From Polyangiaceae bacterium (lineage in GTDB: Bacteria; Myxococcota_A; Polyangia; Polyangiales; Polyangiaceae): a DNA stretch of 64,000 bases. The stretch's first letter is position 1. Every line of letters starts with the position of its first letter. The stretch lies in NCBI GenBank assembly GCA_016712345.1, contig JADJRH010000002.1:136466-200465 (forward strand), read 5' to 3'. This document shows, piece after piece, positions 22,873-61,100 of the stretch. A program made the position numbers and the translations under genes. The notes beneath the pieces were generated by a model, which was not told the DNA's origin, ran no database searches, and worked only from the letters and a program-made list of their open reading frames with translations.

Positions 22873-23127
22873 AAGCGGAAAAGCGAACAGCGTGGCGCGT
22901 CGGGTTCTCCAGATGGAGTTCTGTGGCGAGCGCAGCCACGACGAAAACGAGAGACCGGCGAGACCGGTGGATGGCGACGTGATGGACATCTCAAGTCGCC
23001 GGACGTCCCAGAACGGGCTCTTTTCTGCTGCATCGACAACTCAACCGCAACGAGTTACTCGCCGTTCGAATGAGGCGCATGCGCCGCTGGGGAACTCCGT
23101 GTTGAATACGATGTGTTAGGTGGCAGG

Positions 23128-23187
23128 GCGTGTCAGGTCGTTGCGAGGCGCGTCAGGTCGTTGCCGGGCGATCAGGGCGTCGTGAGG
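23128..23187 (+). repeat. About 2.5 tandem copies of a 20-bp repeat (GCGYGTCAGGTCGTTGCSRG) at the 3' end of the 760-aa protein gene
   Basis: Direct repeats read from the sequence. The last copy is degenerate and overlaps the stop codon. Confidence 0.5.
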
Positions 23188-25454
23188 TGAACCATTTCAA
23201 TCAATCGTTGTGTGCCGCGCTCCAACCCTTCTGCCGGCCAGGTTCCACGGATGACAACCACCCCATTCGCCGATTCTACCTTGGCGGACGAAAGCGCCGC
23301 TTTTTCTCCGATTTGATCGGGCAATGCCAACAGGGTGAGTTTTACAAGTGAGAACATTTGCTCGATGTCTTTGGCCAGAGCGTCGGCGTTTTCACCCGAT
23401 TTGGGATCGATCTCCATTGTCAAAGCCGGGTCACCCGTCAGGTCTAAACTTCCATGCAAATGGCCAATTCTTCGCAACGTTCCACCCGGGTCGAGCGCAG
23501 CGGTGTTTCGCGACAACTCTTCCCATGCTTCTTTGCTCACAAAAAAGGCGATCGCTCCTGTTTTTGGCAATTCTACCCGTTTGTTTTCTTCAGAAGCGGG
23601 CAGCGCCGAGTTTACAATCTCCACCTCGGTACCCACCAAAATGGTACCGTCGTCTGCCTGACCCACGGTCACCCCGCCCGGACCGACAAGCAGCTCACCC
23701 GACTTTTTCCAATCGGTATACCCTTCTTCGCGCATCACTTTTTCAAGCCCGTCCACCACCTTCCCAGGCTTAAAATTCCCACCGATAATCGCTACCCAAC
23801 TGCGCGAGTCAACCGATGCAACAATCACTTCTCGCACGTCGACTGTTGGGGAGATTCCTGTCACGTCGGCAATTCGATCTGCCAATGTTTGACCGGTTGA
23901 TTTTTTGCTCTTCCGTTCAAACAGAGCCGGCCAAACGTGTTTTTTGATGGGTGGAAAAGAAGCGATCGCCCTCAAATCCCCGCGAACCGCCACGTTGGAA
24001 GCGCCCGGAATGTGCCTGTCGGCCACCGGAGTATACCTGAAAAACAGAAAATACGCCGCTGTCACTCCCACAATGGCAATGACGCCCACCACGGCAAACA
24101 GCACCGCAATCACTGTTTTTGCGCGTGATTTTGTGCCATAATGGGTAGATTCACTGGGTAGATTTCCAGTTGTTTGACCGCCTGTCATCTCCCCATTTCC
24201 CAGACCTGGGGCTTTGTCACCCGAAGGGTTGTTTCCCACCGTCAAGGCACCCTGTCCAAGCGCCTCGGGCGCCTTGAGCGCTTGGGTAGACGGCATGGTG
24301 GAGTCGAGCGGATTGGGTACACTTGTCTGACCCGGCGGTCGGTACGTTCCCGAACCTTCCCTCGCGGGCGCCTCGTGGATCGCCACGTTTGGAGCATGGG
24401 TAGGCGCAACGCCGACAAGCGTTTTTGCGCCTGCCATCGGTCGGATGGGTGCCGGAGAAGGCGCATGTTCCACAAGCACCGGGGCGGCAACCGGAGCCAC
24501 ATTTTCAGGTTGGGGAGGTGCGCCTTGCAGCAGGGAAGAATCGGTCACCGGCGCGGGAGCCACAATCGCTTCACGCGCCGGAACCGGATGAGGCCCCGAC
24601 TCTACAGGTACCATGGAAGGATCGGTACCCGGTGCGGGCGCCGCATTGGATGGTACGATCGGTCGAGGTCGCACGTCGGGCATTTTTGGAAGTTGAGCCA
24701 AAAACCCGCCTCCCGCGGGGCGAGCAGGGTAGGCCATGGGAGGTGGCGCCCCTGCGTTTGCAGGTGCGGGCGCACCACCCGCCGATGGAAGGTTTGCCCC
24801 CGTGAAGGGAAGGTTGGCGCCCGGAGGTGGCATGTTCGCGCCGGTAAAGGGAAGGGCGGCACCGGTCGATGGAAGGTTGGCGCCCGCTGTCACCTGCTTC
24901 GCCGATTCAAGCGTGGAAACCATTTCTTTGGAAACTTCAACTCGCTGGCCCACAGGCCCCGTTACCGGAGCGGTTGACTGCGGCGGAGGCGTTGGTGCCG
25001 CAGCGCCCGCAAGGAGCGGTGTTCGCTGTGGAGTGACCGCCTCCGAAGAAATGGGAAAGGCGGGAGTTGGAGTGGCCGGCGTGAGCGCTTGTGACGGTGA
25101 GGGCGGTTGGAGCGCGATAGGGCTCGGCGCGATTGGCGGAGTGAGCACCTCTGAATTTGGACCGGGCGGTGCGAATGCCGTTGCAGCGCCGGGGCGCGCA
25201 GCCTGTCCGGCGTAGAGCGGACCCAGGGCCGGCGTTGGAATGCGCGCGGGAGGCGCATCGGCCATTGTCGGCGAGGGGCGGGCCGGCGCGGCAGGCGCAT
25301 CCACCAACGTGGGCGACGCTCCGCGCCGCCCCCCCGGAACGTCATCCACCGTGAGGCGCCCGACGAGAAGCGGATCGTCAAGCGTGGGCCGATCGCCCAC
25401 GGGAGGTTCACTGAGCGTCGGCGGGACAGGCTCGTCGGCGAGGGTATTGCCCAT
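23172..25454 (-). CDS. Pro-rich membrane protein: about 500-aa N-terminal low-complexity region with (G)ANLP(F/S)TG repeats, one TM helix, and a ~230-aa C-terminal extracytoplasmic domain
   Basis: TM segment TVIAVLFAVVGVIAIVGVTAAYFLFF. Repeats GANLPSTGAALPFTGANMPPPGANLPFTGANLPSAGG. No catalytic motifs. Confidence 0.6.
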   Translation of the reverse strand: MGNTLADEPVPPTLSEPPVGDRPTLDDPLLVGRLTVDDVPGGRRGASPTLVDAPAAPARPSPTMADAPPARIPTPALGPLYAGQAARPGAATAFAPPGPNSEVLTPPIAPSPIALQPPSPSQALTPATPTPAFPISSEAVTPQRTPLLAGAAAPTPPPQSTAPVTGPVGQRVEVSKEMVSTLESAKQVTAGANLPSTGAALPFTGANMPPPGANLPFTGANLPSAGGAPAPANAGAPPPMAYPARPAGGGFLAQLPKMPDVRPRPIVPSNAAPAPGTDPSMVPVESGPHPVPAREAIVAPAPVTDSSLLQGAPPQPENVAPVAAPVLVEHAPSPAPIRPMAGAKTLVGVAPTHAPNVAIHEAPAREGSGTYRPPGQTSVPNPLDSTMPSTQALKAPEALGQGALTVGNNPSGDKAPGLGNGEMTGGQTTGNLPSESTHYGTKSRAKTVIAVLFAVVGVIAIVGVTAAYFLFFRYTPVADRHIPGASNVAVRGDLRAIASFPPIKKHVWPALFERKSKKSTGQTLADRIADVTGISPTVDVREVIVASVDSRSWVAIIGGNFKPGKVVDGLEKVMREEGYTDWKKSGELLVGPGGVTVGQADDGTILVGTEVEIVNSALPASEENKRVELPKTGAIAFFVSKEAWEELSRNTAALDPGGTLRRIGHLHGSLDLTGDPALTMEIDPKSGENADALAKDIEQMFSLVKLTLLALPDQIGEKAALSSAKVESANGVVVIRGTWPAEGLERGTQRLIEMVHLTTP

Positions 25455-27405: not shown

Positions 27406-27460
27406 CGCTTTGGCGGGTTGAGTGAGTTGAGTTGAGTGCGGGAGCGATTGGAATCAGGCG

Positions 27461-29539
27461 TTATCCGCACTGCCCATTGGGTAGGCAACGTTCACCCACG
27501 GAGCACGCGGTTCCGTTGCAAGAGCACGTGCCGTTTGCCACTGTGCATGTGAACGTACCCGCGGTGCCGGCGTTGCAATCGGCATCGCCGTCACACCGGC
27601 AGCCGCCTGTATTGCAGACAAATCCGGCGGGACAAGCGTGTCCGCAGGCGCCGCAGTTTTGAGCGTCGGTCTGTAGGCTGAAACAGCCTGTAGGTGTGGC
27701 GCAGCAGGTTTGACCGGCCGCACACGCGGCGCCGCCGGCGCACGAACACAGATTGCCGGCGATGCAGGATTCACCCTGTGCGCACTGCGTGCCGCCGCCG
27801 CAGAAGCAAAGTCCGTTGTTGCAAAACCCCGTTCCGCCGTTGGAGCACTCTTGGGTGCTTGAACACCCGCAGAACTTTTGCGTACCACCTTGGTCACACT
27901 CAAAACCGTTGATTGTGCCGCCGAGCATGTCACAGTTGTTTCCACAACCGCCGCAGTTGGCTTCTGCCGAGGCGTTTTGGTTGGCGTCGAGAGTGGCTGT
28001 TTCACAGCCGTTGTCGTTTTGCGGGGCGGCGGGTTGTGTACAGTTGCCAAACCCCAAGTCACATGTGGAGTCACACAGTCCGGCGGTGCAGTTTCGCGAT
28101 GCAACGTTGTTGCCGGAACACGCGCGCCCGCAGCCGCCGCAGTTGTTGATGTTGGTGGCGGTGTTGGTCTCACACCCGTCGGCGAGATTGCCGTTGCAGT
28201 TGCCAAAGCCGTTGTTGCAAGTCACAGAACACATGCTGTTTGAGCACGTGCCGGTGCCGTTGGCCGCGCCTGCGCAGACGGTTCCGCACATGCCGCAGTT
28301 GTTGGCATTCGTTGTGGTGTTGACTTCACACCCGTCACCCGCCTGGTTGTTGCAGTTGGCAAATCCCATGTTGCAGTTGCCCATGGCGCACATACCCATG
28401 TTGCAACTCGCCGCAGCGTTGGCAAACGAACAGGCTTGTCCGCACATACCGCAGTTGGAAGTGCTTGTTTGAGTGTTGGACTCACAACCGTTTGCAACCA
28501 TGTTGTCGCAATCGTCAAACGGCGCTGTGCAACTCTGAATTAGACACATTCCGGCCATGCAGGCCGCTGTGGCGTTGGCCGGATTGCATGTCTGACCACA
28601 CCCGCCGCAATTTTGAAGGTCTGTACCGGTGTTGGCTTCACACCCGTTATTGAGGTTGTTGTCGCAGTTGCCAAACCCCGCATTGCAGTTGATTGCGCAC
28701 TGGCCGTTATTGCAAACCGTTGTGCCATTGGCCCCGTTGGGACATGCGTTGTCGCAGGCTCCGCACGTTGTTGCGGAGTTGTCGAGGTCGGCTTCACACC
28801 CGTCGGCGGCGTTGTTGTTGCAGTCTTCAAAACCGTTGTCGCAATTGGTGATCACGCACATGCCCATGTTGCACTGGGCGTCGCCGTTGGGAGCGTTGTT
28901 GCAGCTTGTGCCGCACATTCCACAGTTTTGATTGGTGGTGAGGGGCGATTCACAGCCGTTTTGGGGGTTACCGTCGCAATCTCCCATGCCGTCCGGGCAT
29001 TGGGTTGTGCATTGGCCGTTTACGCAACTCTGGTCTGCAAAACACTGGACTCCACAGCCGCCGCAGTTGTTTACGTCGCTCGCGGAATTCACTTCACAGC
29101 CGTTTTCATCGGAGTTGTCGCAGTTTGAAAAACCGCTGTTGCAGGCGCCGATGATACACATTCCTTGTGTACACTCTGGTGTTGCGTCGGCCAAATTGCA
29201 GGCGTTTCCGCAGGCTCCGCATTGAGCAACGGTGTTTGAAATATCCACTTCACACCCGTCGTCGGGTGAGCCGTTGCAGTCGCGGAAGGTGCCATTGCAA
29301 CTGCCCACGGCACACGCCCCTTCTGAACAACCGGGCTGTGCATTGGCCGTGAAACACGGTGCACAAGTGGCATCGCCGCAGCCGAAGGTGGGATCTTCAA
29401 TGGATACACACGCGCCGTCGCAGAACGTTTGCCCTATGGAGCAGGTGTCGAAAACGTCAAAGTCTTGTGTACACCCGGCTCCGAGCAGGTAGGCCACCGC
29501 AAAAGCGAGCAAAAGTACGGAATAATGGCGCGTCTTCAT
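27461..29539 (-). CDS. Secreted/lipoprotein Cys-rich repeat protein (Myxococcus-type cysteine-rich repeat, about 15 tandem units)
   Basis: Repeated C-x3-G-x-C-x(3-6)-C-x2-GF-x-(D/N)-C-(D/N)-x4-(D/N)-GCE units (for example CIIGACNSGFSNCDNSDENGCEVN). N-terminal signal MKTRHYSVLLLAFAVAYLLGAGC. Confidence 0.85.
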   Translation of the reverse strand: MKTRHYSVLLLAFAVAYLLGAGCTQDFDVFDTCSIGQTFCDGACVSIEDPTFGCGDATCAPCFTANAQPGCSEGACAVGSCNGTFRDCNGSPDDGCEVDISNTVAQCGACGNACNLADATPECTQGMCIIGACNSGFSNCDNSDENGCEVNSASDVNNCGGCGVQCFADQSCVNGQCTTQCPDGMGDCDGNPQNGCESPLTTNQNCGMCGTSCNNAPNGDAQCNMGMCVITNCDNGFEDCNNNAADGCEADLDNSATTCGACDNACPNGANGTTVCNNGQCAINCNAGFGNCDNNLNNGCEANTGTDLQNCGGCGQTCNPANATAACMAGMCLIQSCTAPFDDCDNMVANGCESNTQTSTSNCGMCGQACSFANAAASCNMGMCAMGNCNMGFANCNNQAGDGCEVNTTTNANNCGMCGTVCAGAANGTGTCSNSMCSVTCNNGFGNCNGNLADGCETNTATNINNCGGCGRACSGNNVASRNCTAGLCDSTCDLGFGNCTQPAAPQNDNGCETATLDANQNASAEANCGGCGNNCDMLGGTINGFECDQGGTQKFCGCSSTQECSNGGTGFCNNGLCFCGGGTQCAQGESCIAGNLCSCAGGAACAAGQTCCATPTGCFSLQTDAQNCGACGHACPAGFVCNTGGCRCDGDADCNAGTAGTFTCTVANGTCSCNGTACSVGERCLPNGQCG

Positions 29540-31547: not shown

Positions 31548-31633
31548 ACGTGTACACAACAAATGTACGCAAACAAATGTGTACGCAGTTGATATGTACA
31601 CAATGGATGTGTACGCAATAGATGTGTACGCAA
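31548..31633 (+). repeat. Six tandem 14-15-bp repeats (RATGTGTACRCAAYN) between convergent gene ends
   Basis: cgtgtacacaac aaatgtacgcaaac aaatgtgtacgcagtt gatatgtacacaat ggatgtgtacgcaat agatgtgtacgcaatt, read directly. Each unit contains the TGTACRC core of the genome-wide enriched octamer. Confidence 0.75.
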
Positions 31634-33370
31634 TTATTTTCGAAGCGCGTCGCGCCCGAGATGAATCACAAGCACGAGCGCGCCGAGCACAAATAGAACC
31701 ACCGCAAGCGTGTGGTTTGTTGTGTACACAATTGCGCCCGACGGGACGGTTGCAAGCACGAGCAGGCCGGCGAACACGCGCGCGCTCGCTTTGTCGGCGG
31801 CGGGTTTTACCTGCGGATCGTTCACCACAAGCGAGAGGCGTCCGAGCCTTAAATCGTCGAGGATTTCACGCGTGAGGGGCGGCAACTCGTACGCGGCGCC
31901 GCTGAGCCTTTCAACCCCGCGGTAGAGGTCCATTGTGAGGCGTTCGGGCGAATAACGCTTTTTGAGGAGATCCAAAAAGTAGGGGCGGGCTTCACCGTAC
32001 ACATCGAGATCGGGGTCGATCTCTTTGCCCACACCTTCAACGGTCATGAGCGCTTTGCCAACGAGCAAAAAGTCGGGCGGAATTTCTAAGCCGTATTTGG
32101 TGGCGCCGTACACAAGGTCGCCGATCATCGCGGAGAGGTTGATCTCTTTGAGCGGCTTTCCAAGGTACTTTTCGCTGAGCATGGCGACTTCGGCTCGGTA
32201 GGCCCGCATGTCGACTTTTTTGGTGGGTGTGGCGATCGCGTAGAGCGCGTCGGCAATGCCCACGTAATCTTGGCGAACCGCTGCAACCATGAGATCCACC
32301 GTTTTTTCGCGCATCTCAGGCGAAAGGCGGCCAACCATTCCGAGGTCGATAAACCCGATGTTCGGCTCTTCGGGTGTACCCATGATGAAAAGGTTGCCGG
32401 GGTGGGGATCGGCGTGAAAAAAGCCGTCTTCGAAGATCATCTTGATGATGATCCCCACGGAGATTTTGGCGATTTTGGGGCCTTCAAATCCGCGGGTTTT
32501 GACGGCGTCGTAGATCTTGTAGCCGTCAAAAAATTCGAGCGTCAAAACGCGGTTGGTGGTGGCTTGTTTGTACACCGTGGGAAAGCGCGCCACGCTTTTG
32601 CCGCTGAAGTTTTTGCTGAAGCGCTCGGAGTGTTCGGCTTCAAGCTTGAAGTCGAGTTCGCTCGTGATCGCTCGGTCAAACTGATCAACGAGCGCAACGG
32701 GGGAGTAAATTTTCGACTCGAGGATCGTGCGCTCGATGAGCCCGGCGAGCATGTGCAAAAGCTCCAGATCGCGAACGACGGTTTCTCGCACGCTCGGGCG
32801 TTGCACTTTGACGACCACTTGTTTGGGGCCGCTTTCGTGTTTGAGAACCGCGCGGTGTACCTGGCCGATGGATGCGGCGGCGAGCGGCTTCTCATCAAAG
32901 CGATCAAAAATGTCGGCGATGGGCGCGCCGAGCGATGACTCAACGGCGCTTTTGATCTCGTCGAATGGGAGCGGCGTGACTTCGTCCTGAAGTTTTTTAA
33001 GTTCACGAATCCAGTCGGCGGGGAGAATGTCGGGGCGCGTGGATGCGATTTGGCCGAGCTTCACGAACGACGGGCCGAGATCCATGAGCACGAGGCGGCC
33101 GCGTGCGGGCAGCGAGATCGTGCGCGCTTCTTTTTCACCGCGTTCGGCTTCGGACTCGGGAACGGTGAGCGCGGCGGCTTCTTCACCGAGCAGTTCTGCG
33201 CCCGACGTTTTTGAGGGCAACGCGGCGGGCCCCTCGACGTGTGTACCTTTCTTCTTGGCGCCGCCGAAACCGAGGCGCTGCGCGATCTCGCCGAAACCGT
33301 GCCGCACGAGCACGAGGTAGATTTGGCGCAGTCGATTGAGGTCGCGAACGGCTCCGAGGATCGACGGCAT
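31634..33370 (-). CDS. ubiB: UbiB/ABC1 family atypical protein kinase (ubiquinone biosynthesis regulator) with a C-terminal TM segment
   Basis: ASIGQVHRAVL...VVVKVQRP and ADPHPGNLFI motifs. The start is set at MPSILGAV, because the ORF-track N-terminal extension is arginine-rich reading of the opposite-strand GC-rich frame and overlaps the upstream gene. Confidence 0.85.
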   Translation of the reverse strand: MPSILGAVRDLNRLRQIYLVLVRHGFGEIAQRLGFGGAKKKGTHVEGPAALPSKTSGAELLGEEAAALTVPESEAERGEKEARTISLPARGRLVLMDLGPSFVKLGQIASTRPDILPADWIRELKKLQDEVTPLPFDEIKSAVESSLGAPIADIFDRFDEKPLAAASIGQVHRAVLKHESGPKQVVVKVQRPSVRETVVRDLELLHMLAGLIERTILESKIYSPVALVDQFDRAITSELDFKLEAEHSERFSKNFSGKSVARFPTVYKQATTNRVLTLEFFDGYKIYDAVKTRGFEGPKIAKISVGIIIKMIFEDGFFHADPHPGNLFIMGTPEEPNIGFIDLGMVGRLSPEMREKTVDLMVAAVRQDYVGIADALYAIATPTKKVDMRAYRAEVAMLSEKYLGKPLKEINLSAMIGDLVYGATKYGLEIPPDFLLVGKALMTVEGVGKEIDPDLDVYGEARPYFLDLLKKRYSPERLTMDLYRGVERLSGAAYELPPLTREILDDLRLGRLSLVVNDPQVKPAADKASARVFAGLLVLATVPSGAIVYTTNHTLAVVLFVLGALVLVIHLGRDALRK

Positions 33371-33381
33371 GGCGGGCCAAT

Positions 33382-34931
33382 CTAGCGCACGCGGATGACG
33401 GTGCCGAGTTCTGTGGGCGTGGGCATCACCGCGGTCCATCCGGCGGGCAATCGAGGCCCGGTCCACCAAAAGAGGCGCTGCGCGTCGAGCGGGGCGAGGT
33501 TGACGCACCCGTGGCTGCGAACGTTGCCGAACGAGCGGTGCCAATACGCCGCGTGAAGGCCGACTCCTTTGGAGAAAAACTGCGGATACGGAACGCTCTC
33601 CATGCGGTAGTAGCGCGACGCGTTTTCGTCTTCGAGGTTGTCCATGTCGGTGGCAAGCAGCTTGATCCAAATGCGATGTGTACCCACAGGCGTGGCGTTG
33701 GCGGTTTTTTGTTTGCCTTTGCCGGTGGACACGAGCGTTGCAAAAATGGGCTTTTTGCCTTCGTAAGCGACGAGCGTTTGGCTGGGGAGATCGATGTCGA
33801 TCCACTTTTCGCCGATGTCGGCTTTCACCTCGGGAGGAGGATCGACGACGGAAGGGCGGCGCACATCTTTGGCCGCGATCCACTGTGAATCGCCGATGCG
33901 CAAAAAGCGTTTGTCGGGCGACTCGGCAAGCACGCGCACGAGATCGAAACGCGACTTGGATTGGCCTGTGTACACACCACCGGGCGATTTGAAAGTGCGC
34001 GCGTGTTCGGGCAAGACCCACGCAAACGGCAGCGCGCCCGATGTTGGAAGCGTGTGTACACCTGGTAATGTCTCGCCGGTGAAGAGCGATGGGCGCGACG
34101 GGCCGAGGTCGCGCATGGGTACCCAGAGGTTGTGGGAGGTGCGACCGTAAAGCCCGCCGTCGAAGTTTTTTTCTTCAATGATGGCCACGGCAAAGCCCGG
34201 ATCGAGCTGCATTGCCGGCTCGCCGATGTCGACCGATTCAAGCTTTTTGTAAGCCTGCGAGCCGTCGGGCCCAACGAAGTAGTAGCGGTAGGGCAAACCG
34301 TTTTTGGGATCACCGAGGGTGTGGAGGCCCGCTGCGATGGGGTCGTTGCCCGACAATTCAAGCGCGCCGTCGCAGATCCACGCGAACGGGCCCACGTTGA
34401 TGTAGCGGCCGTCACACCCGGGGCCCTGGCGCGCTGCGTACACAGGAAGGCGTGCCTCGCGGCCGGCGGATCCGCGCTTTTTGGCGTTTTTTGAAGGGCC
34501 GGCGAACACCGGCTCGTCGGCGCGGAGAACGCGTACACTTTTGGCCCACGAGGGAAGCGGCACGTCGCCGGAAACCACCCACGGACCGAGCGCGTTGAAT
34601 GGCGTGGCGGCCGATGCGCTCGGTGCGGACGACGACGCCGACGATGCGCTGGATGCGCTCGCAACGGCGGGGGATTGAGTGAGCGGCGAAGGTGTGACGG
34701 AGCCTTCGGCGTGCGCGTGAGCGGTGATGCTCAGCGCTGCGAGGGCCGCGAGGACAACGCTCGGTGGCTGGTGTTTTTCTACTGCGCGCCCCGCTGACGC
34801 GTCATTGCGTAGCTTCCGGTGCTCAAATACACAGAGTATGTTCCGCTCCGGGTCTCGCTCGGACGCGTGATCGGGGCTGCTCGTTAGGAAAAACAGCAGC
34901 CACCTACGGGCGGTAGGAGAAGCGGACTTCA
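33382..34931 (-). CDS. L,D-transpeptidase (YkuD/ErfK family) with an N-terminal signal anchor
   Basis: C-terminal SHGCVNLAPLDAQRLF catalytic motif and an N-terminal hydrophobic segment SVVLAALAALSITAHAHA. The only in-frame start is the ATG at 34931. The long ORF-track extension to 35940 is an artefact. Confidence 0.75.
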
Positions 34932-36367
34932 TGATCGCAGATGCGGAACATGTCGCCCTCGGCAATGGCTTTTCGAGCGATGCGCTGGCCGTTGTACTCG
35001 ACGCCGTTCGTTGAGCCCATGTCGACCATGTAGAACTGGCCGTTGAGGAACTCGACCATCGCGTGTTGGCGCGACACGTTGGGGTCTTTGATGGTGAGGT
35101 CGCTCGACTGTTTGCCACGGCCGATGATGAAACGGTCTTTGTTGACCGGGAATTTCTGACCGCCGTAAAAAGCGTGCAGCGACGGCATTCCGCCGGCCAT
35201 GGATTGGGGCGGGGGCGGTTGCTGCGCGCCGAAAGGCGGCGGCGTTTGCATGTTCGGCGGTTGAAGCGGAGGCGGCTGCATGGGCGGCGGCCCGGCCTGC
35301 ATAGGCGGCGGTGCCGGGGGCATGGGCGGCGCCGGAGGCATGGGCGGACCTTGGCTCGGCATACCGGGTGGAGGCGGCACCATCGGCGGCCCTCCCATAC
35401 CCATAGGAGGCGGCCCACCCATAGGAGGCGGCCCGCCCATTGGCGGATGTCCGCCCATCGGCGGGGGACCACCCATCGGCGGGGGACCACCCATCGGCGG
35501 AGGTTGCATTGGCGGAGGGCCACCCATAGGCGGCGGCGTGGGCATGCCGACGCCGCCGATTGGCGGCGGGGGGGCCGGAGCGTACGCACCGGTGGGTGCC
35601 CCGGGCGGAGGAGGAGGTGGCGCGGAGCCGGGACCGCGACCCGGTGCGCCCACGGGCGGACGCATGGTTCCACCGGGAGGCGGCGGCGGGGGCGGGGCCA
35701 TTCGGCCGCTCGGCGGCGGGGGCGGCGGACGAACACCCATGCCGGGGCCCGGTCCGGGGCCGGGAGCGGGAGGCGGCGCAGGCACGCTCGGGCGTTTGGC
35801 GCCCATTGGTGGAGGCGGCGGAGGCGGCGGAGCACCACCCGGCCGCGGGCCGGGAAGGGGAGCCATGCCCGGAATCGGCGGCGGTGGTGTGTACGCACCG
35901 GGCACACCGGGAGGCGGCGGGGGCGGCGGCACAGCTCCAAAGCCCTGCGGCGCGGGAGGCGGCGGCGGCACCGGCGGCTGACCGGTGGGAATCATCGGCG
36001 GGGGCGGCGGTGCGCCTGGATAAGCGCCCGACATTCCACCCGGGGGAGGCGGGGGTGGCGGCACCGCTGCGTTTGGCGGCGGCGGTTGTTGAAATCCGTG
36101 CGGCGACGGCGGCGGGGGCGGCATTCCACCGCCGGGCGGCTGCGGAATGGCGTGCGGTCCAGATCCGGGCGCCTGTCCGTCGCGCGTATTTCCGGGGAAC
36201 GGCGTTCGCGGGCTGTAACTCCGCTGACGCGCGTATTGCTTCATCGACTCGTTGATCAAGTAGTCGATCGAGCATTCAAGCTCACGCGCCATCTGCTCGA
36301 ACGTCTCCCACAGGACGTCCCGGCACTGAAAAGTCCGTGCGCTCTTCTTGTTGGGATCCGCACTCAT
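34904..36367 (-). CDS. Three-part protein: N-terminal ribbon-helix-helix-like domain, about 300 aa of poly-Pro low complexity, C-terminal FHA domain
   Basis: N-terminal RTFQCRDVLWETFEQMARELECSIDYLINESMKQYA fits the RHH beta-alpha-alpha pattern. C-terminal FIIGRGKQSSDLTIKDPNVSRQHAMVEF...GSTNGVEYNG is an FHA core. Confidence 0.7.
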   Translation of the reverse strand: MSADPNKKSARTFQCRDVLWETFEQMARELECSIDYLINESMKQYARQRSYSPRTPFPGNTRDGQAPGSGPHAIPQPPGGGMPPPPPSPHGFQQPPPPNAAVPPPPPPPGGMSGAYPGAPPPPPMIPTGQPPVPPPPPAPQGFGAVPPPPPPPGVPGAYTPPPPIPGMAPLPGPRPGGAPPPPPPPPMGAKRPSVPAPPPAPGPGPGPGMGVRPPPPPPSGRMAPPPPPPPGGTMRPPVGAPGRGPGSAPPPPPPGAPTGAYAPAPPPPIGGVGMPTPPPMGGPPPMQPPPMGGPPPMGGPPPMGGHPPMGGPPPMGGPPPMGMGGPPMVPPPPGMPSQGPPMPPAPPMPPAPPPMQAGPPPMQPPPLQPPNMQTPPPFGAQQPPPPQSMAGGMPSLHAFYGGQKFPVNKDRFIIGRGKQSSDLTIKDPNVSRQHAMVEFLNGQFYMVDMGSTNGVEYNGQRIARKAIAEGDMFRICDHEVRFSYRP

Positions 36368-38226
36368 TTCTTCTCGTCCTTTTTCGGCTCGTCCTTTTTC
36401 GGCTCGTCGGGCTTGGGCGCGTCTTTCTTAGGCTCGTCTTTTTTCGCCTCCGGCGCCCGGTCAAGCATCGCCGGCTCAACGCAGTACTTCACAAAGTCAC
36501 CAACCGTTTTGATGTCTTTTTGCTCGCGCTCTTTCGGATCTTTGGCGCCCTCTTTTGCCACTTCACACACCCACTTGCAGTCGGGATCGGCGTCACATGA
36601 GGGCGCCTGCGTGGAGTCGGATTCGAGGCCTTTTACCTGGTCGATCTGCGTTTTGTTGCCAAGCGTCAGATAATAAGAAAGTGCGGTTGTTCGAACGACA
36701 CCCGGCCCCGACGTGAGGTGCTTCTTGAGCGCCTCGACAACGTTGCCCTCTTTCAGTTCGCCGATGAGCGCACCGTACGTGATCGCTTCAGCCATGGCGA
36801 AGTTCTTGCCGTCGGGAGGCAGTTTCCCCATGAACTCGTCGATGTGTTTCACCGTGCTCATCTTCAGCACGGTGCCGGCGGCCACGCGCCGCACCTTCCA
36901 TTTGTCCTGCTTGAAGATCTCGTAGAGCTTGTCGACAACTTGGTCGCGCGGCATTTCGCTCGCGCGCCTGAACGCGAGATCGAGCACGTTGTCGGGCGCA
37001 TCCGATTTGGCGATGTCGAGCACGCGCTTGATGTCTTCGGGATTGCCGCGTTCCAACCGGCCTTCGAGCGCCGCCAGAGCCGCCGTGCGCCGCTTTTCAA
37101 CCTGCTCTTTTCGCAGATCCCAAAGAGCCTGCGCCGTTGCAGCCTTTTCTTTGGTTTCTTTGTCTGCCTTTGCATCGGCGTTGTCGGGACGTTTGCCCAA
37201 ATCAGGCCCCTTGTTTCCCGCGAAATCGAGGCAGAAATCGATTGCCGGCCGCCCGCCCACTTTTTTGAGCGAACCGAACGCACGCATCAACTCTTCACCT
37301 TGGTAGGTGAGAAGCTGCATTTGAAATTGGTCCGGCGTGGGCTGCAACTTGGAGGCCGCGTTTGCCGCTTCAAGCTCCGGCTTTTTCACCTTCGTCCACT
37401 CGTCGGACGACACATATTTTGCAATCCCCACGAGCGCTGCCGACGCCGCGTCTTTGGTTTTTGCGTCGCCGAGTTCAGCCACCAACGTGGCCATTTGATC
37501 AAGCCTTCGCGTTTCACGCGTCATCAACTTGGGCAGGCCCGCCACCGCCGACGGACCGATAAAACGGAGCAGCTGCTCCATGCCGTAAAGCTGCGAGCGG
37601 TTGTCGAGCCGATGCTCAAAATCGGCCATTGCCCAATCCACAAGCGCGGTCTTCAAATTCTGCTTCAGCGCTTCATCGGTGATGATGTTTCGCTCTGAAA
37701 TCAGCATCGCATGCGCCGCGTCTTTGTACGGAAACGACGGGTCGGGCGGCGATGGCTGACCGGCCTGCGCAACCGGCGGCGCTTTCTTCAGCTCGTCGAT
37801 GATCAGCGGCACGAGCGACGCCACCACTTGCTGGCGAGTGTCGGTGCTCACCGCGCCCAGCGCTTCGACGAATGTGCGCTTGCACGCTTCGAGATCACCG
37901 TCTTGGTCGATCTGCGAAAACGCGGGCCGCCGGCCCGATCGCGGCTTCATTCGAATCAACGCCAGTGTGGCCTCGACGCGCAGCGCCACATCGTATTTGT
38001 CGTGCACCAAAACAGCGCACAACTTCCGCGGGCCTTGGCTTGTGGTCTCCCAACGATGAAGGTCATTTTGGTCAACACGGCACCCCGCCAAAAGCGGGGC
38101 GGCGCTAACCGCAAGCACCGTTAAGAGCCGCGGTGCGAAGCGAGATCGCGGTCGTGAAGTGTTCGGCGTGCGAGCCGCCGCTTCCTCGGATGCGCGACCT
38201 CCCCTGATTCGTTCGACAGTTGCCAT
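36364..38226 (-). CDS. Hypothetical alpha-helical lipoprotein (620 aa) with a Lys-rich KKDEPKK C-terminal tail
   Basis: Start at MATVE. Lipobox LLAGC. The ORF-track extension to 40305 is GC-rich antisense reading of ftsK. The stop overlaps the FHA gene by 4 nt. Confidence 0.65.
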   Translation of the reverse strand: MATVERIRGGRASEEAAARTPNTSRPRSRFAPRLLTVLAVSAAPLLAGCRVDQNDLHRWETTSQGPRKLCAVLVHDKYDVALRVEATLALIRMKPRSGRRPAFSQIDQDGDLEACKRTFVEALGAVSTDTRQQVVASLVPLIIDELKKAPPVAQAGQPSPPDPSFPYKDAAHAMLISERNIITDEALKQNLKTALVDWAMADFEHRLDNRSQLYGMEQLLRFIGPSAVAGLPKLMTRETRRLDQMATLVAELGDAKTKDAASAALVGIAKYVSSDEWTKVKKPELEAANAASKLQPTPDQFQMQLLTYQGEELMRAFGSLKKVGGRPAIDFCLDFAGNKGPDLGKRPDNADAKADKETKEKAATAQALWDLRKEQVEKRRTAALAALEGRLERGNPEDIKRVLDIAKSDAPDNVLDLAFRRASEMPRDQVVDKLYEIFKQDKWKVRRVAAGTVLKMSTVKHIDEFMGKLPPDGKNFAMAEAITYGALIGELKEGNVVEALKKHLTSGPGVVRTTALSYYLTLGNKTQIDQVKGLESDSTQAPSCDADPDCKWVCEVAKEGAKDPKEREQKDIKTVGDFVKYCVEPAMLDRAPEAKKDEPKKDAPKPDEPKKDEPKKDEKK

Positions 38227-41300: not shown

Positions 41301-41667
41301 CGTGAAGATGAACGGCTCCAACGACACGCGCCGCGTGCAATGCCCGTTCTGCTCCGAAGAAGAAGTGCAGCGCGTCACCGACTTTTTGCGCCTGCAGGGC
41401 TCGCCCGTTTACGACGAAAACATTCTCAAGCCGCGTGACGAAGACGGTGAAGGCGGCGATGTGGCCGACGACGAACTCGACGCAATGTACGACGCCGCGG
41501 TGCGCGTTGTTGCCGACACGCGGCGCTGTTCCACATCGTGGCTTCAGCGCAAGCTTGGCATTGGCTACAATCGCGCCGCCAAAATTGTCGAAGCCATGGA
41601 AAAACGAGGCGTCGTCGGCCCGGCAAACGGCGCCAAAGATCGCGAAGTCCTCATCGGCTCCATCTGA
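38380..41667 (+). CDS. ftsK: DNA translocase FtsK
   Basis: N-terminal TM helices and an Ala/Pro-rich linker. Motor domain with Walker A GATGAGKSVGLN, Walker B ILIVVDEFADLM and ATQRPSVDVITG. C-terminal gamma winged-helix domain (STSWLQRKLGIGYNRAAKIVEAME). Confidence 0.95.
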   Translation: MDEDVSTGLPLEMAVSLLAPRTPIAPESDGEAAPLAEPEPKPTRKRPSPKPKSTANDLPQGKRTGAKSPRSTKSAADETAAKSVGDSAADKPAPTPAPKGVHAYAREAAALLLIASALYISLALASFKADPLRIEVTGADWVGPVGAAFAGLLVETVGACAWLVPLDLALFATPLLQGRPAKVTFPRIAGDLVVLVVVSALLHVAFPKTTAFGAMPLGGTSGELFGEVMRALFSTLGSYIVGLTVVSLILIGRAAFSIIDWAQRAERRARALGEKGHGGLRALVGAWDQARALDEQRREEERKASEPVITEACDEAIFAALGDESPMPFPRVKPVLPAKAKAAPLVVNNERAAFAAPAAIAPTIAIASPSLASPSLVAAPKVAAPIAIATPPVNVPSIAAAFPEPPLADADAERRARAEAPTPSPVVAAAAPEKKRGRKKNDAANNAAAPIVEAAAAPIINAMVDLAAPAVGARAPDLDLKSDEAIAFAADSGDAADLDDANAEASFVDEAAAGAFELDLTGDRNNVSRSGEAAPKAAPPLSAPPAAVRAPIAAAPAAPVAPAEAEVKIVDTSAALEAQKPSILVKIVPAIGEGFRLPSPSLLDEAPGGRVHIDEDQLKQTAVQLEKVLADYGVNGKVEEIHPGPTVTTFEVSPAAGTKVSKVASLADDLALGLSRKVRIVAPIPGKNRIGFEIPNERRMPVVMRELVEDKRFLDMKAPLPCVLGRDIIGAPYFADLASMPHVIVAGATGAGKSVGLNVMLVSLLYRRTPAELRLLMIDPKVVELAPFDGIPHMLLPVVTDMKQASNALKWAVDEMERRYQLFANAGTRNITTYNGWAERVRKGEIKAPKKALPKTVTAVAPDGTDVDIPASADDPELPETLPWILIVVDEFADLMMQQGKDVEASVARLAQKARAAGMHVILATQRPSVDVITGMIKANFPTRIAFRVAQKVDSRTILDEQGAEHLLGRGDMLVKMNGSNDTRRVQCPFCSEEEVQRVTDFLRLQGSPVYDENILKPRDEDGEGGDVADDELDAMYDAAVRVVADTRRCSTSWLQRKLGIGYNRAAKIVEAMEKRGVVGPANGAKDREVLIGSI

Positions 41668-41734
41668 GGCCGCCCCGCGGACTCACGCTTCGCAACGCGC
41701 CTGGCGCGCTTTTCCAACCGAACCGTCCATTTCA

Positions 41735-41895
41735 ACACGGAGTCACGGAGTACACAGAGGACACGGAGTTTCTTTGATTGTCGGGCCGCAATGGGTACAC
41801 AATAACCAACGTTCTCGACCTGACGCCGTGCAAGCCGATAGCAGCCTAAAGTACACAAAACTCCGTGAACCTCCGTGTCCTCCGTGCCTCCGTGT
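41735..41895 (+). mobile_element. MITE-like element copy C, flanked by CACGGAG-repeat terminal inverted repeats, between ftsK and the next gene
   Basis: Left end cacggagtcacggagtacacagaggacacggag. Right end ctccgtgaacctccgtgtcctccgtgcctccgtg, which is its reverse complement. The core is homologous to copy B. Confidence 0.65.
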
Positions 41896-41979
41896 TTCAT
41901 GCGACGTGTCAGATGCCCCGACGGTACAGGTCGTCGCGAGACGCTTCAGCCACCGAACTATTGAACGCGGCAGCGAAGC

Positions 41980-43494
41980 TTGAGAGCTTTTTTTAAAGCG
42001 TTTTACAGCGACAAGCCACTTTTTTTGGCGGCCCTTTTTCTCGCCTTCGTCGGCGTTTTCCCGATCGTTGCAACCGACATTCTCCCGTTCATCGACTTGC
42101 CTCATCACGCCGCGCTTTCACGCCTTTGGTGGGATGTTCTGTGGGGCAAGCCGGAAGCGACCAAACACTACGTCATCGACTGGATGCCGATGCCTTATTG
42201 GTCGATCTACGTTCTTTTTGCGCCGCTCATTCGCATCTTCGGTGCACTTCACGCCGCACGCATTTTAACGGCGTTTTGCGCGCTGTGTGTACCTTTGGCG
42301 GTGCTTCGTTTTCGGCACGCGCTCGGGCGATCGATGGCGCCGGGCCTGCTCGCGTTTGTGATCGTCGTCGACTTCAATTTGTCGTTCGGCTGGCTCAACC
42401 ACGTGCTCGGTGTGGCGCTTGCGCTGTTTGCGCTCGCCGCTCTTGTCAAAGCCGACTCACCGCGTCGGGCGCTCTCCGTGTGGCCATGGGCCGTGTTGCT
42501 CGCCTTCACGCACGTGTTGCCGTTCGGCTTTTTCGGGCTCGCCGCCGCGCTTCTCACCCTTGTTCGTCCGGGCCCAAAAAAGAAGGCGTTTGCAACGCTC
42601 TTGGTTGCCTTGAGCCTTCCGTCGCTCGCGCTTGTTCCGTGGCTTGTGCGTACACTTTCTCAAGCCGCAGTCGGCAAACCGTCGGGGGCTGTGTACTCAT
42701 CGTTCGCCACGCGCGTGACCCACTTGTTTGAGTACACATTGGGCGGCGCGCAGGCGTCGGATCGGGGCATGTTGGCCGCCGGACTGCTCTTCACATTCCT
42801 GATCGTGCTGCCGCTCGCCGCGCTTCTTTTGCCGCGTGAAAAAGCCACTCCGCTCGATCGCGTTTCGCGCGCCCCGTTTGCCGCGGCAACTCTTCTCTAC
42901 TTCACATTGCCGCTCAGCGTGGCTCGCCCCGTGGAGCACTGGGGCACGTACCCGCGTTTCGCGTCGCTCATGCTGCTGGGTGTACTCATCGCGGTCAAGC
43001 CGGCAATCTCGGCTCGGCGGATCTTTGTGTACACAATTCCCGCCGCCTTGCTCGGCTTGTGGCTTTCGGTTGAAATAACGATTTCGTTTCGCCGTTTTTC
43101 GCGCGACGCCGCAGCATTTCACGAGATCGCGGCTCACGTTCCAGAGGGGGCGTCGCTCCTTCCGCTTGCGTACCACACCGCTTTTGAAGGCACGCGCCAC
43201 CGCATGGGCGAGTCAATCCATGCGTACATCACGGCCGACACGGGCGGGTACAACCCGTACCTCTTTGGCCAACCCACAAACCCGGTCCACTACATCAAAC
43301 ATGCCAAACTGCCGGCGCCAGAAGGCTGGGGCCGCCGCCCCGAAACCTTCAGCATGCTGATTCACGGCCAGCGTTACGCGTACCTGCTCGTGATCGGGCG
43401 AGCCGACGACCCCGTGCCGGAGTGGATCGGCCTTGCGCTTGAGATCGAAGCTGATCGCTACCGCCTCTACAAAATTTTGGAGCCGCGCCGTTAG
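41980..43494 (+). CDS. Polytopic integral membrane protein (about 12 TM), possibly a GT-C-like glycosyltransferase
   Basis: Hydropathy only, with an early conserved-looking DxxPFIDLPHH loop. No confident family assignment. Confidence 0.5.
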   Translation: MRAFFKAFYSDKPLFLAALFLAFVGVFPIVATDILPFIDLPHHAALSRLWWDVLWGKPEATKHYVIDWMPMPYWSIYVLFAPLIRIFGALHAARILTAFCALCVPLAVLRFRHALGRSMAPGLLAFVIVVDFNLSFGWLNHVLGVALALFALAALVKADSPRRALSVWPWAVLLAFTHVLPFGFFGLAAALLTLVRPGPKKKAFATLLVALSLPSLALVPWLVRTLSQAAVGKPSGAVYSSFATRVTHLFEYTLGGAQASDRGMLAAGLLFTFLIVLPLAALLLPREKATPLDRVSRAPFAAATLLYFTLPLSVARPVEHWGTYPRFASLMLLGVLIAVKPAISARRIFVYTIPAALLGLWLSVEITISFRRFSRDAAAFHEIAAHVPEGASLLPLAYHTAFEGTRHRMGESIHAYITADTGGYNPYLFGQPTNPVHYIKHAKLPAPEGWGRRPETFSMLIHGQRYAYLLVIGRADDPVPEWIGLALEIEADRYRLYKILEPRR

Positions 43495-58189: not shown

Positions 58190-61100
58190 TCAGGGGCTTT
58201 GTTCACCCTCAGGTTTGGTTTTTTTCTTGGCGGTTGGGCGCTTGGCTTTGCTTTTTTCAGCCGGTCGAAACGCTCGCAAGTCGTCGCGTGAAAGGCCGAG
58301 CGCGTGGCATTCACCGTCGAGAAACGTTTCGTAATAGTCGCCAAGGCGCAGCCCGCCAAACTCGGGGTTGGGGTCATTGTGCCATTGTTTTACCCACGGA
58401 ATCAGTTCAAGAAGGCCGGCAAGCATGGGTAGAAGCCGCTCTTTGGACCAGGCTTCACCGGTGCGGCGGTGTTGGTAGAGGGTGGCAAGGGCTTGCGCTT
58501 GTTGTTGGTGATTCCACCCCGCCCAGCCAAACACAGGTTCGCGGTCTTCGTCTGATTCGCAACCGGGGTAGCTGATAAAGCGCTCTTTTGGAACATCCAG
58601 TTTGCCTCGCAGGCGCCAAGTAGACGCGTCGCGATAATCGCCCTGGTCATATTTGGGCGGCGGGTCAAACGGGTTGACTTTTTCGCCGCGATCTTCGGCC
58701 CGCTGGAGATCCCATACCTTTTCCCAAACGGCGCGTTTTTCAAGGCCAGAAAGGGTGTGGCGGTAGGCGGCCAAAAAGGGCACCGATTCTCTTTCGATCA
58801 GACCGAACGCAAGTTCGCGGCCTTCAACATTGAGGTACTCGGAAACTGTATTCAGCGTTTGAGACTCTTCCCGAATGGCTTGGAGGATCTCCCTAAAAGG
58901 GACAGGTTCTGCGCGCTTTTGAGTTACCCTTTCGAGGTCGCTTGCGAGGTATTCCTCGCACCAATGTCGCACAACCTCACCACGAAACTCTGCCTGATCC
59001 ACGTTCTGCTCAGTGTCTCGCCATGCACGCTTATTGGTTCGCGATTCAAGCAATGCCAGTGAGGAGTGTAATGCAAGAGCGTCACGACCTTTCCACCAAT
59101 CGGGCACGCGTCCGACGACCGAACGCGTTTGTTCTGAACTTGTTCGCACTCGTTCAGACACCCCGCTCGCGTAGCCTGTACTCGCCTCGAAGGGCCGATC
59201 ACCCAGCGGGCATACCCAATTCCCGTCCGCCACGCTCGCGGAAACCGGCGCGTCAGTCAGTCCATACGCAACATAGATCATCCAGTCGATTTCTTCTTGG
59301 ATGCATGCACAACGCGCCGTCAACTCATCGAACCTGCGCCATTCGCGATTAACCGTCTCACGCAGTGTGTCGGCAGACTTCCAAGCGTCAGGTGCGTCAA
59401 TCAAAACACCTCCTGAAAGCCATTTGGAACGGGCAGTCGCTGCTTCCGTGAGCGACCTTGCAAGCATTGCCATTGCGCTGGCATTCTGGGGCGGTATTGG
59501 CATTGATTCCAACGCGGTGCCCGCAAACTCATACGCCGCCCGAGCGGGATCTGTGGTGTGCTTTTGCGAGGCGTTGGTCTTGTTGTGGCAGACTTGTTTC
59601 ATCCAGAAACAAGCGGTGGAGCTGTTGAGGTAGGCGAGCAATGCCAGGTGATCGTCTTCGGTGGCGTCTTCTTTGAGCTTGATAATCGGCGCCGAACGGT
59701 TGAACACCTTCCCACCCCGATCGAGCACAAAATGATTGTGTGTGGCGACAAACGCGAACGTGATCGTGAGCGGCGTCCGCAGCTTGGCAGCTGTCAATCG
59801 ACCAAATTCATACCACGCCAAACCGCCTTCAACCTTGGTTTTGCCGCCAAAAAGCTTGTTATTTGATAGGTTCGTGCGGTGCGGCCACAGTACCTTGAGA
59901 GCGTCGTCCTTGGGGCTAATGAGCCGAAAATCTGGAAAATAAGGGAACAAAGCCGTTTCCACCTCGCCAACAGTCCAATCCCGAATGGCTTCACCGATCA
60001 CCATCGGCCGCGTGAATGGTCGCGAGGCCCCGGTACGGTCCCAAACCTGACGGGGTCGGATATAGACATCGTCCTCCAAGGTGAAGGATGCGATTCCGAT
60101 GCTGTCCACGAGGTCACCCAATCTGCATTGGGCCCGCTCTTCCAACAACTCTTTCAACTCCGCCGCCCCTCCTCCACCCAAACTCCACGGATGTTTTGAC
60201 AACGTGGTTTTGGGCACCCGCGCCACGCTGATGAAGTCGTTTTCAAACTCAACTTCCTCCCCGTGGTCCGCTATACTCCTCCACACCAAACCCTGTTCAG
60301 GATCCTGCGGGGTTGATGGTTCACCGCGTTTGGCCAACACCGCAAGCACATCGCTCGCCTGCTGCGGCTCGTGGGTTCCCAACAAAATGACGGTGGGTGT
60401 ACCATGCCCTGGAATGTACGCGCCCGATGTATTGACAACCCCATCTAAGTTGACAGTGGGGAGAAACTGTTCAATCAGCTTTTTACCAAACTCTCGCTTC
60501 ATAAAGGAGTTCGCCGTGATCATCCCCACAAACCCACCCTGTTTGGCGAGTTGAAAAAAGCGCTCGGTAAACGGCGCCCCAAGCGAATATTTCCCAGCGG
60601 CGGAGCGAGGGTACATCTCTCTGTACCGCTCCCGCAAATAGGCATCTTTCACCGTGATATACGGTGGGTTGCCCACCACCACCGTGAACTTCCTGTGCAG
60701 CACATCGCGGGCCGCCTGCTCATCTTCCAGGGCAAATGCCTCACCTTCCCACGTGGCAAGTTGTTGACCTGACAACTCACCCAGTTTGATTTGGGAGTGT
60801 TGCGGGTTGTGGAGGAGTGAATCGGCAACCACCAGGTGTAAGGGGAGAGCGGGAGCCAGCGAAAGCCTTGTGTACCCCCCTTTTTCGAGAAATGCGAGTG
60901 TCAGACGAAAACGCGCAATCGCCACCGCGTACGGGTTAATGTCACACCCAAACACCGCATCGAGCGCTTTCTGCGCGGCATGGCGAACGTCCAACCCCGG
61001 CTCGGTGCGCTGGCGATGGTCGAGCAGGCGCTCAAACGCGCCGAGCAAAAAGTGGCCGCTGCCGCAGGTAGGGTCAATCAAAGTGGTTTGGTCCAACCCA

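Follow-up and report, generated by a model that had tools for sequence, protein, structure and literature searches.

Heptamer-array foldbacks between genes of a Polyangiaceae genome belong to a cross-phylum repeat family associated with GxxExxY genes

Heptamer arrays at three intergenic loci of the Polyangiaceae window

We analyzed a 64-kb stretch of DNA, hereafter the window, from a metagenome-assembled genome of Polyangiaceae (Myxococcota), in which arrays of the heptamer CACGGAG lie at three loci, designated A (positions 14771–14897), B (22583–23165), and C (41736–41945). The arrays comprise three or four CACGGAG-type heptamers at a spacing of 8–10 bp, and at B and C they form inverted arms. 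Comparison with other genomes placed the three loci, as gene-less members, in a cross-phylum family of intergenic repeats, here called heptamer-array foldbacks, the gene-carrying form of which encloses a gene of the GxxExxY family. All three copies are located between open reading frames (ORFs), as the preliminary description of the sequence had stated: A follows a gene resembling FGE-sulfatase, B is situated between two minus-strand genes, and C follows ftsK. The distance behind a stop codon was 7 nt for the distal terminus of B (stop at 23172), 30 nt for A (14741), and 69 nt for C (ftsK stop at 41667). The heptamer occurred 23 times in the window, compared with 10.1 ± 3.6 times in dinucleotide-preserving shuffles, none of which (0/100) reached 23, and 13 of the 23 units were accounted for by the three clusters together with a single unit at 23095.

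Copy C has 4+4 units at a period of 8–11. Its left arm (41736–41768, plus strand) reads CACGGAG-T-CACGGAG-TA-CACAGAG-GA-CACGGAG, that is, three exact units and one CACAGAG, with TTTCAA in front, and its right arm (41861–41894, minus strand) contains four CTCCGTG units with periods of 10, 9, and 8, which pair with the left arm. The 92-bp centre between them (41769–41860) has T-rich edges and a core of about 65 nt (GGGCCGCAATGGGTACACA ... GACGCCGTGCAAGCCGATAGCAGCC); neither a GxxExxY remnant nor an Rfam match could be detected there. The same core occurs in copy B and nowhere else in the window. Copy B consists of one exact unit, two degenerate units, and 2.5 inverse units: the left arm (22626–22661, plus strand) carries ACCACGGAG, CACGGTA, and CACAGAG in that order, the exact CACGGAG being at 22626–22632; the centre (22662–22766) contains the core and an A7 run abutting the right arm; and the right arm (22767–22789, minus strand) is made up of CTCCGTG-GAT-CTCCGTG (inverse units at 22767–22783) and a partial unit. 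When B and C were aligned, the identity was 74% overall and 81% over 62 nt, and a 19-nt core motif, GGGCYGCMATGGGTACACA, occurred in the window in these two copies only (0.04 occurrences expected). The sequences quoted in the preliminary description were all found at their positions, and the heptamer-array inverted termini of C and the similarity of the B and C cores that it had reported both hold.

Copy A has only one 4-unit arm (14820–14866, plus strand), composed of CATGGAG and three CACGGAG units (14820–14853; period 9–10) followed by T7 and GTATTT, with no inverse arm downstream. The right arm of locus B was 97% complementary to this arm over 36 nt. Beside copy A lies a hairpin with a 7-bp stem, CTGCAAA-GCG-TTTGCAG, followed by T5 (14876–14897, plus strand). 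The three CACGGAG units, the T7 run, and the hairpin can therefore be read in the sequence as they had been described, while its naming as a terminator was not echoed by the terminator scan, which made no call there.

Outside the outermost heptamer, a module of about 50 nt, designated X (GCRACGACCTGA...CTGACACGTCG...AACACGGAG), was found at four junctions, aligned in register. It precedes the arm of copy A (14771–14819, plus strand), where it begins 30 nt past the stop of the gene at 13689–14741 (plus strand), and the left arm of locus B (22583–22620, plus strand), where a short variant includes an 8-bp hairpin (GACACGTC/GACGTGTC); in reverse complement, it adjoins the right arm of copy C (41895–41945, minus strand) and forms part of the distal terminus of locus B (23102–23165). 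A repeat finder likewise reported that the 87-nt stretch at 14771–14857 is 77% complementary to 41857–41943. The boundaries first drawn around the elements, which excluded this module, were consequently too narrow. The distal terminus of B (23095–23165, minus strand) consists of one CACGGAG (23095–23101) and a duplicated X module and borders the upstream gene at 23172–25454 (minus strand); the heptamer previously regarded as a solo unit near 23093 is hence the end of an X-plus-heptamer terminus, and for this reason locus B (22583–23165) is probably one composite. The 305 bp between its inner arm and the distal terminus (22790–23094) showed no protein-family match and no GxxExxY remnant. Internally, the X module is built of ACCTGACACG-like direct repeats, and it always stands just outside the outermost heptamer. 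No match to it was detected in 191 loci of other organisms; X may represent either an extension of the ends that is specific to this lineage or another repeat family that shares their location.

A cross-phylum foldback family and its association with GxxExxY genes

The distribution of the arrays was examined by scanning 596 Gb of genome sequence, with one genome per species, for an 18-base pattern (CACGGAGNNNCACGGAGTTTT) that all three window copies match. At least 103 genome loci were found, compared with about 17 expected by chance, whereas there were no matches in 2.9 million viral contigs. Among the matches listed, 78 of the 103 loci had at least four heptamers within 120 bp, and several genomes had three or four loci each. 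According to the record labels, in which the phylum derives from metagenome binning, these 78 listed loci belong to Bacteroidota (44), Spirochaetota (18), Elusimicrobiota (4), Chloroflexota (3), Actinomycetota (3), Ignavibacteriota (2), Acidobacteriota (1), and Planctomycetota (1). Also among the matches listed, the heptamer spacing peaked at 10 bp, the arms faced inward in 67 cases versus outward in 9, and the foldbacks faced 73 gene 3' ends compared with 43 5' ends and were commoner in convergent than in divergent intergenic regions (21 versus 10). The usual form consists of 2–4 CACGGAG units (with the variants CACAGAG and CACTGAG), a T-run, a short centre, and 2–4 CTCCGTG units; it is intergenic and typically 10–30 bp from ORF ends. 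In the family logos, TTnA(C/A) precedes the outermost unit at both ends, and the spacers are C-poor. A cross-phylum family of heptamer-array foldbacks therefore exists.

The window copies share these properties. Their ends, TCAACACGGAG and TTTTACCACGGAG, agree with the family end consensus; TTnA(C/A) lies outside the outermost heptamer (ends tttcaaCACGGAG, attcaaCACGGAG, and attttaCCACGGAG), and a T-rich run lies inside the innermost unit (CACGGAGTTTTTTTG and CACGGAGTTTTGTG). Their arms are inward facing, with 2–4 C-R-C-N-R-A-G units, and they sit in intergenic DNA shortly past a stop codon. The three loci are thus members of the family, and the earlier view of them as a small, non-coding, intergenic inverted-repeat family with heptamer-array arms is borne out, the term "REP-like" used there being close to the best reading. 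They are atypical members, in that a centre of about 90–100 bp is kept between B and C and the X module is present.

Several variants of the architecture were also observed. In Gelidibacter maritimus (L094, 1495–2593), ten tandem 118-bp units each contain a 3–4-unit CACGGAG array and CGCAGAT-type arrays, indicating that foldback arms can be amplified into minisatellites. The architecture is also found with sequence types, or flavours, that fall outside C-R-C-N-R-A-G (CATTGAG/CTCAATG, CACAGAT, and CGCAGAT; L180 1525–1625, L091, and L094), so the family is broader than counted here. Near-identical foldbacks, including the loop, were present in a Dysgonamonadaceae bin (L019, 7905–7969) and a Treponema bin (L079, 7750–7815) from the same termite-gut sample, Cc175, which may reflect either a binning error or recent transfer between phyla.

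When 640 ORFs of the pattern-chosen loci (simple longest-ORF calls) were clustered all-against-all, the sole recurrent neighbour among the matches listed was one protein of about 125 aa, and neither a transposase nor any other recurrent partner was present in those 640 ORFs. This protein is GxxExxY (TIGR04256, E 1e-46; PF13366, PDDEXK_3). In a tblastn search, it directly adjoined the arrays in 6 of the 103 loci among the matches listed, from six assemblies, these loci having been picked without reference to the gene. The reverse test used 80 metagenome loci encoding GxxExxY relatives, namely the closest relatives (52–69% identity) of three array-linked queries, of which 76 had adequate flanks. 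With a generalised heptamer, C[AG]CN[AG]AG, and a flank of 150 bp, at least two heptamers were found on at least one side of the gene in 72 of the 76 loci, and the exact layout of array, gene, and inverse array (P-gene-M) in 46 of the 76, whereas this heptamer density was reached by only 2–3% of background 150-bp windows. The arrays are therefore tightly and specifically associated with GxxExxY genes.

Array pairs 375–520 bp apart enclose the GxxExxY ORF, and this was the sole gene type found between arms. Across all loci, the centre was shorter than 40 bp in 62 cases, 40–160 bp in 19, 160–360 bp in 2, and 360–560 bp in 50; 49 of the 50 centres of 373 bp or more matched the GxxExxY hidden Markov model (HMM). 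The element thus exists in two discrete states, empty and gene-filled. A typical gene-filled element, or cassette, has 3+3 units, starts a median of about 11 nt past the stop of an upstream ORF on the same strand, and ends 0–30 nt ahead of the next start codon; because the orientation matches and these gaps are short, the cassettes are probably co-transcribed with their neighbours. The heptamer flavours were CACAGAG, CGCAGAG, CGCAAAG, CGCCGAG, CACGGAG, CACAAAG, and at least one outside the pattern (CATTGAG), and both arms of an element had the same flavour. The flavour tracked the protein clade within GC bins (1/1000 permutations), and distant arrays on a cassette's contig carried its flavour in 18 of 24 cases, compared with 4.8 ± 2.3 in shuffles. 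The contigs that carry GxxExxY genes were typically only 1–4 kb in length. No description of the pairing between arrays and GxxExxY was found in the literature searched by heptamer string and by family name or identifier, where the heptamer strings led only to primers and unrelated sequences, and none of the papers naming GxxExxY, PDDEXK_3, PF13366, or TIGR04256 concerned flanking repeats.

GxxExxY is a large family, with 24,353 proteins at E ≤ 0.001 in a library of 50%-identity cluster representatives, and its function was listed as "Unknown" in a survey of PD-(D/E)XK proteins (PMC3424549). The protein is about 123 aa long, and among 62 diverse members E28, Y31, D68, and E78 were invariant and K80 nearly so. 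These conserved residues constitute the canonical E...D...ExK site, and since that site is intact, GxxExxY appears from its sequence to be a minimal, catalytically competent PD-(D/E)XK nuclease of the RecB/Cas4 type. Sequence searches returned no solved structure and no PHROG match, and the matches to Cas4 profiles were weak; a protein search aimed at Myxococcota GxxExxY genes returned no such names. An AlphaFold2 model built from a shallow alignment had a pLDDT (predicted local distance difference test) of 56 and was set aside. Some relatives (P0241–P0256) are tandem two-domain fusions of about 270–295 aa, which hints that the single-domain protein may act as a dimer. In one clade (L104, L106, L128, L133, and related loci), the GxxExxY ORF reads into the downstream array, giving C-terminal tails of the form ...NDFPDSLRSLRAQR, and a C-terminal NxL extension accompanies the CGC-type flavours.

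Origin of the foldbacks and competing explanations

We consider, with a probability of roughly 0.6, that the window loci are gene-less members of a foldback family in which a nuclease gene and its derivatives stand in a pairing similar to that of repetitive extragenic palindromic (REP) sequences and RAYT, their associated transposase. The element consists of two inverted arms with 2–4 units of CACGGAG, or of a lineage-specific C-R-C-N-R-A-G flavour, separated by 1–4-nt spacers, and in the full-length form the arms bracket the GxxExxY gene of about 123 aa, a few nucleotides past one stop codon and a few nucleotides ahead of the next start codon. Under this proposal, the nuclease would recognise the heptamers on either side of its gene, and the gene-less foldbacks would be non-autonomous derivatives, kept and occasionally copied in trans, a relationship of the REP/RAYT (REPIN) type with another enzyme at its base. 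In this Polyangiaceae genome, the family would have gained the lineage-specific centre of about 90 bp and the terminal X module of about 50 nt, and effects on the host, such as transcript 3'-end formation, supply of ribosome-binding sites, or altered mRNA stability, would probably be side effects.

One alternative is that the element acts at the RNA level, its arms pairing in a polycistronic transcript to form a segmented stem whose effect would be termination, stabilisation of the mRNA upstream, or cleavage (for example, by RNase III), the last insulating or excising the cassette in the manner of 23S rRNA intervening sequences, with the gene-less foldbacks serving as terminators or stabilisers. 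The bias towards gene 3' ends and convergent regions, the orientation of the cassettes with their flanking genes and their short distances from the adjacent stop and start codons, the T-runs after the inner unit, and the usual equality of spacer lengths between arms (89–97 of 110) are all in its favour, as is the strong predicted folding of copy C (z about −5). The predicted RNA fold of the copy C arms had z = −5.1 on the plus strand and −4.7 on the minus strand, with energies of −90 and −100 kcal/mol; these values result from the inverted arrangement, so that the structure prediction suggested in the preliminary description does give a strong fold but is not evidence of a selected structure. 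In short foldbacks, only 61 of 99 spacer pairs were of equal length, and spacer complementarity between the arms was 26%, compared with 35.5 ± 4.4% for shuffled partners; for arms bracketing a gene, it was 42%, compared with 34 ± 5% in shuffles. Combinations of CACGGAG and CACAGAG between arms occurred at the frequencies expected under independence, so that the heptamer variants are not compensatory, and the mismatches on the transcribed strand comprised 16 G.U-compatible and 15 incompatible cases, with no wobble bias. Because the spacers are not complementary and the variants are not compensatory, it is the heptamer sequence itself that is conserved, not the pairing of the arms, and conservation of a 7-nt word points to recognition by a protein.

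Further observations also disagree with a function in RNA. The terminator scan made no call of an intrinsic terminator at copy C, where the T-runs sit inside the loop and not behind the stem, and Rfam gave no match in the window at the gathering threshold, in 41600–42000 at E ≤ 10, or in 17 related loci. A need for pairing alone would moreover fail to explain why one heptamer recurs across phyla of very different GC content. The suggestion that the repeats supply terminators or act through RNA structure is accordingly weakened, since the arms are not selected as a hairpin, although the elements nonetheless favour gene 3' ends, and we regard an RNA-level role as rather unlikely.

If the word is read by a protein, that protein could instead be a conserved host factor unrelated to GxxExxY, of a nucleoid-associated or regulatory kind, with the cassettes merely inserting into or borrowing its sites. 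Conservation of the heptamer sequence rather than of pairing is what such a factor would leave; gene-less arrays outnumber cassettes by about 20 to 1 in the pattern-chosen loci among the matches listed, and many sites are stable at orthologous positions. Against this, the flavours vary by lineage and follow the clade of the enclosed gene, for which a factor encoded with the array is the simpler explanation; no other gene recurs near the arrays among the matches listed; and the spacing is flexible (8–12 bp). A host factor of this type is quite unlikely.

Turnover of the elements was seen as well. At one orthologous site, upstream of one conserved gene, four states were present in related contigs: L162 has a cassette, L109 a gene-less foldback whose flavour is similar, L180 a foldback with a different flavour, and L133 no element. 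Such filled and empty versions of one site could also be produced if GxxExxY were a homing-type selfish gene, the nuclease cutting the centre of an empty foldback of independent origin and the gene being copied in by repair. Small homing endonucleases of the PD-(D/E)XK type exist, for example I-Ssp6803I, and the two discrete centre sizes described above, with no remnants in the intermediates, are what homing would leave. However, the arms would offer only about 25–35 bp of homology per side for repair, and the spread of the foldbacks themselves would be left unexplained. The 13-nt centre of the empty foldback L109, ATTTTGAGTGTTT, is in addition similar to the opening nine and the closing five nucleotides inside the cassette, and the retention of nucleotides resembling the ORF start suggests deletion and not a site that was never occupied. 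We regard homing as improbable.

The classical alternative, put forward in the preliminary description, is that of miniature inverted-repeat transposable elements (MITEs) moved by a transposase of the DDE (IS630/Tc1-like) or IS200/IS605 type whose gene lies in another part of the genome, and it is highly improbable: the elements are small and intergenic, have inverted terminal arms, and occur in several copies, and a 5-nt direct repeat, TTTCA, can be read on both sides of the copy C arms, but this TTTCA is not a flank, because the X module beyond it recurs in other copies; no transposase, including the Y1 type, was found in or beside 183 related loci, nor any transposase-carrying parent between such ends; the pattern is absent from the viral contigs; and a search for target-site duplications in 122 elements (k = 2–8, offsets 0–8) showed no enrichment beyond the palindromic end consensus, whose TTAA accounts for the apparent matches. 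Local duplication, which the preliminary description had named as the alternative to a mobile family, is not supported, since at least 103 genome loci match the array pattern and the same architecture was present in other genomes at no fewer than 78 loci, spread over at least 8 phyla. Interpretations as a CsrA sponge, TRAP-like site, Shine–Dalgarno or anti-Shine–Dalgarno sequence, Chi site, uptake sequence, iteron, or parS site were dropped because of flavour variation (for example, CGCAAAG lacks GGA/GGAG), the occurrence of both orientations, or a taxonomic spread at odds with them.

The pairing of foldbacks with an enclosed nuclease gene is thus the reading we prefer, and several points weigh against it. 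No GxxExxY gene or remnant was detected in the 64-kb window, the B and C cores, or the 305-bp stretch of locus B by tblastn and HMM searches of six-frame translations, and any cognate nuclease of this Polyangiaceae genome is hypothetical. That GxxExxY proteins bind or cut the heptamers is purely inferred, and transposition by a lone PD-(D/E)XK nuclease is not known. The shared flavour of arrays and cassette could alternatively result from common descent of the cassette unit or from genome-specific concerted evolution. The array period is 8–9 bp in GC-rich contigs and 9–11 bp in AT-rich ones, which is unusual for a rigid DNA-binding array and means that the family does not keep to a strict helical phasing. 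The proportion of 72 of 76 may not hold across PF13366, because the loci are close relatives of three array-linked queries, and the bimodal centre sizes, with almost no intermediates, are better matched by discrete gain or loss of the gene than by gradual decay through deletions. Several cassettes and foldbacks also shared an orthologous site between species or between samples (L001/L086, L111/L117/L125, L121/L122/L153, and L186–L191, the last from six samples), so that residence is long and largely vertical, and no direct evidence of recent mobility was found. In the two nearest relatives, the element was absent from the region downstream of ftsK, where the gene order differs, and hence neither provides a clean empty site.

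Comparison with known repeats and implications

Among known systems, the foldbacks most resemble the REP/REPIN–RAYT partnership. Both comprise short intergenic repeats, often in inverted pairs, in tens to hundreds of copies, together with one or a few small enzyme genes bracketed by inverted repeats, and the repeat co-varies with the enzyme lineage; both show long-term, largely vertical residence without target-site duplications, and side effects on termination or mRNA stability have been proposed. The enzymes differ, RAYT being an IS200/IS605-like Y1 HUH transposase and GxxExxY a PD-(D/E)XK protein of the Cas4/RecB-like type. A REP is a single imperfect palindromic hairpin with an unpaired GTAG or CGTC tag (PMC3733652) and thus a different kind of repeat, whereas the foldback arms are formed by 2–4 sequence-conserved heptamers with non-complementary spacers, and no GTAG/CGTC-type tag was seen at foldback ends. 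In addition, the same foldback heptamer recurs across phyla, and the hosts are mainly Bacteroidota, Spirochaetota, the Planctomycetes–Verrucomicrobia–Chlamydiae (PVC) group, Chloroflexota, Acidobacteriota, Elusimicrobiota, and Myxococcota, in contrast to the Proteobacteria that host REPs.

The foldbacks resemble MITEs in being small and non-coding with inverted ends and in plausibly being internal-deletion derivatives of a gene-carrying parent (L162/L109), but they have no DDE transposase parent and no target-site duplication, they show no sign of recent bursts, and their arms are built of sub-repeats. Inverted-repeat-bounded intervening sequences with small ORFs, removed by RNase III, occur in the 23S rRNA of Leptospira, Coxiella, and others. 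Here, too, a small, selfish-looking ORF lies between complementary arms in a transcribed unit and need not harm the host; however, the ORF reported in intervening sequences encodes a four-helix-bundle protein, whereas the foldbacks enclose a GxxExxY ORF, were seen in no rRNA context, and show no detectable selection on arm pairing. The short tandemly repeated repetitive (STRR) and HIP1 sequences of cyanobacteria are likewise high-copy repeats located between genes and based on heptamers, but STRR units are contiguous, with a period of 7, are confined to one lineage, and do not form inverted arms around a gene. Compared with the Cas4/RecB family, GxxExxY is small (about 123 aa), lacks both an Fe-S cluster module and a helicase partner, has no link to CRISPR, and lies between heptamer arrays.

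The window contains further repeats. A palindromic octamer, GTGTACAC, has about 40 sites over 950–47500 and 60800–63200 (e.g., 7408–7416, 11654–11663, 12510–12519, and 43026–43035), both in genes and between genes, with none at 47.5–60.8 kb; searched as TGTGTACAC with up to one mismatch, it gave 117 matches, compared with 5.5 ± 2.8 in shuffles. This abundance resembles that of the HIP1-type hyper-abundant palindromes of cyanobacteria, and the GTGTACAC-like core ascribed to the element in the preliminary description is part of this genome-wide octamer signal rather than element specific. Four tandem 15-nt units of the form ATGTGTACGCAAT(n)2 at 31577–31634, just upstream of the end of the ORF at 31634–34021 (minus strand), form an array of the over-represented octamer. 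A long ORF at 27454–29539 (minus strand), with at least seven repeats of 156 nt (61–73% identical) and rich in TGC/GCA codons, probably encodes a Cys-rich repeat protein, and a Gly/Pro-rich protein is probably encoded in the region at 34900–36400, which is 69% GC and of low complexity, with many GGCGGC repeats and with long ORFs that overlap on both strands.

For the annotation of the window, the foldback reading would mean that the three loci are selfish or commensal repeats rather than regulatory sites specific to ftsK or other neighbouring genes. A broader proposal, which we put forward tentatively and at somewhat less than even odds, is that a class of genomic repeats spread across phyla and not described before has GxxExxY/PF13366, a family of about 24,000 50%-identity clusters, as its enzyme partner. 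The system would be analogous to REPIN–RAYT but independently evolved, and the nuclease would read 7-bp words at the ends of its own gene and maintain or spread hundreds of gene-less foldbacks per genome. If the pairing is real, this would provide the first functional context for a very large orphan nuclease family and a second, independently evolved example of a long-term partnership between an enzyme and a repeat, extending such partnerships to Bacteroidota, Spirochaetota, Planctomycetota, Chloroflexota, Acidobacteriota, Elusimicrobiota, and Myxococcota. It would also explain the 1–4-kb contigs around GxxExxY genes, as repeat-induced assembly breaks would give, and would offer, as an experimental system, a small nuclease whose short DNA word is apparently programmable (flavour-specific).

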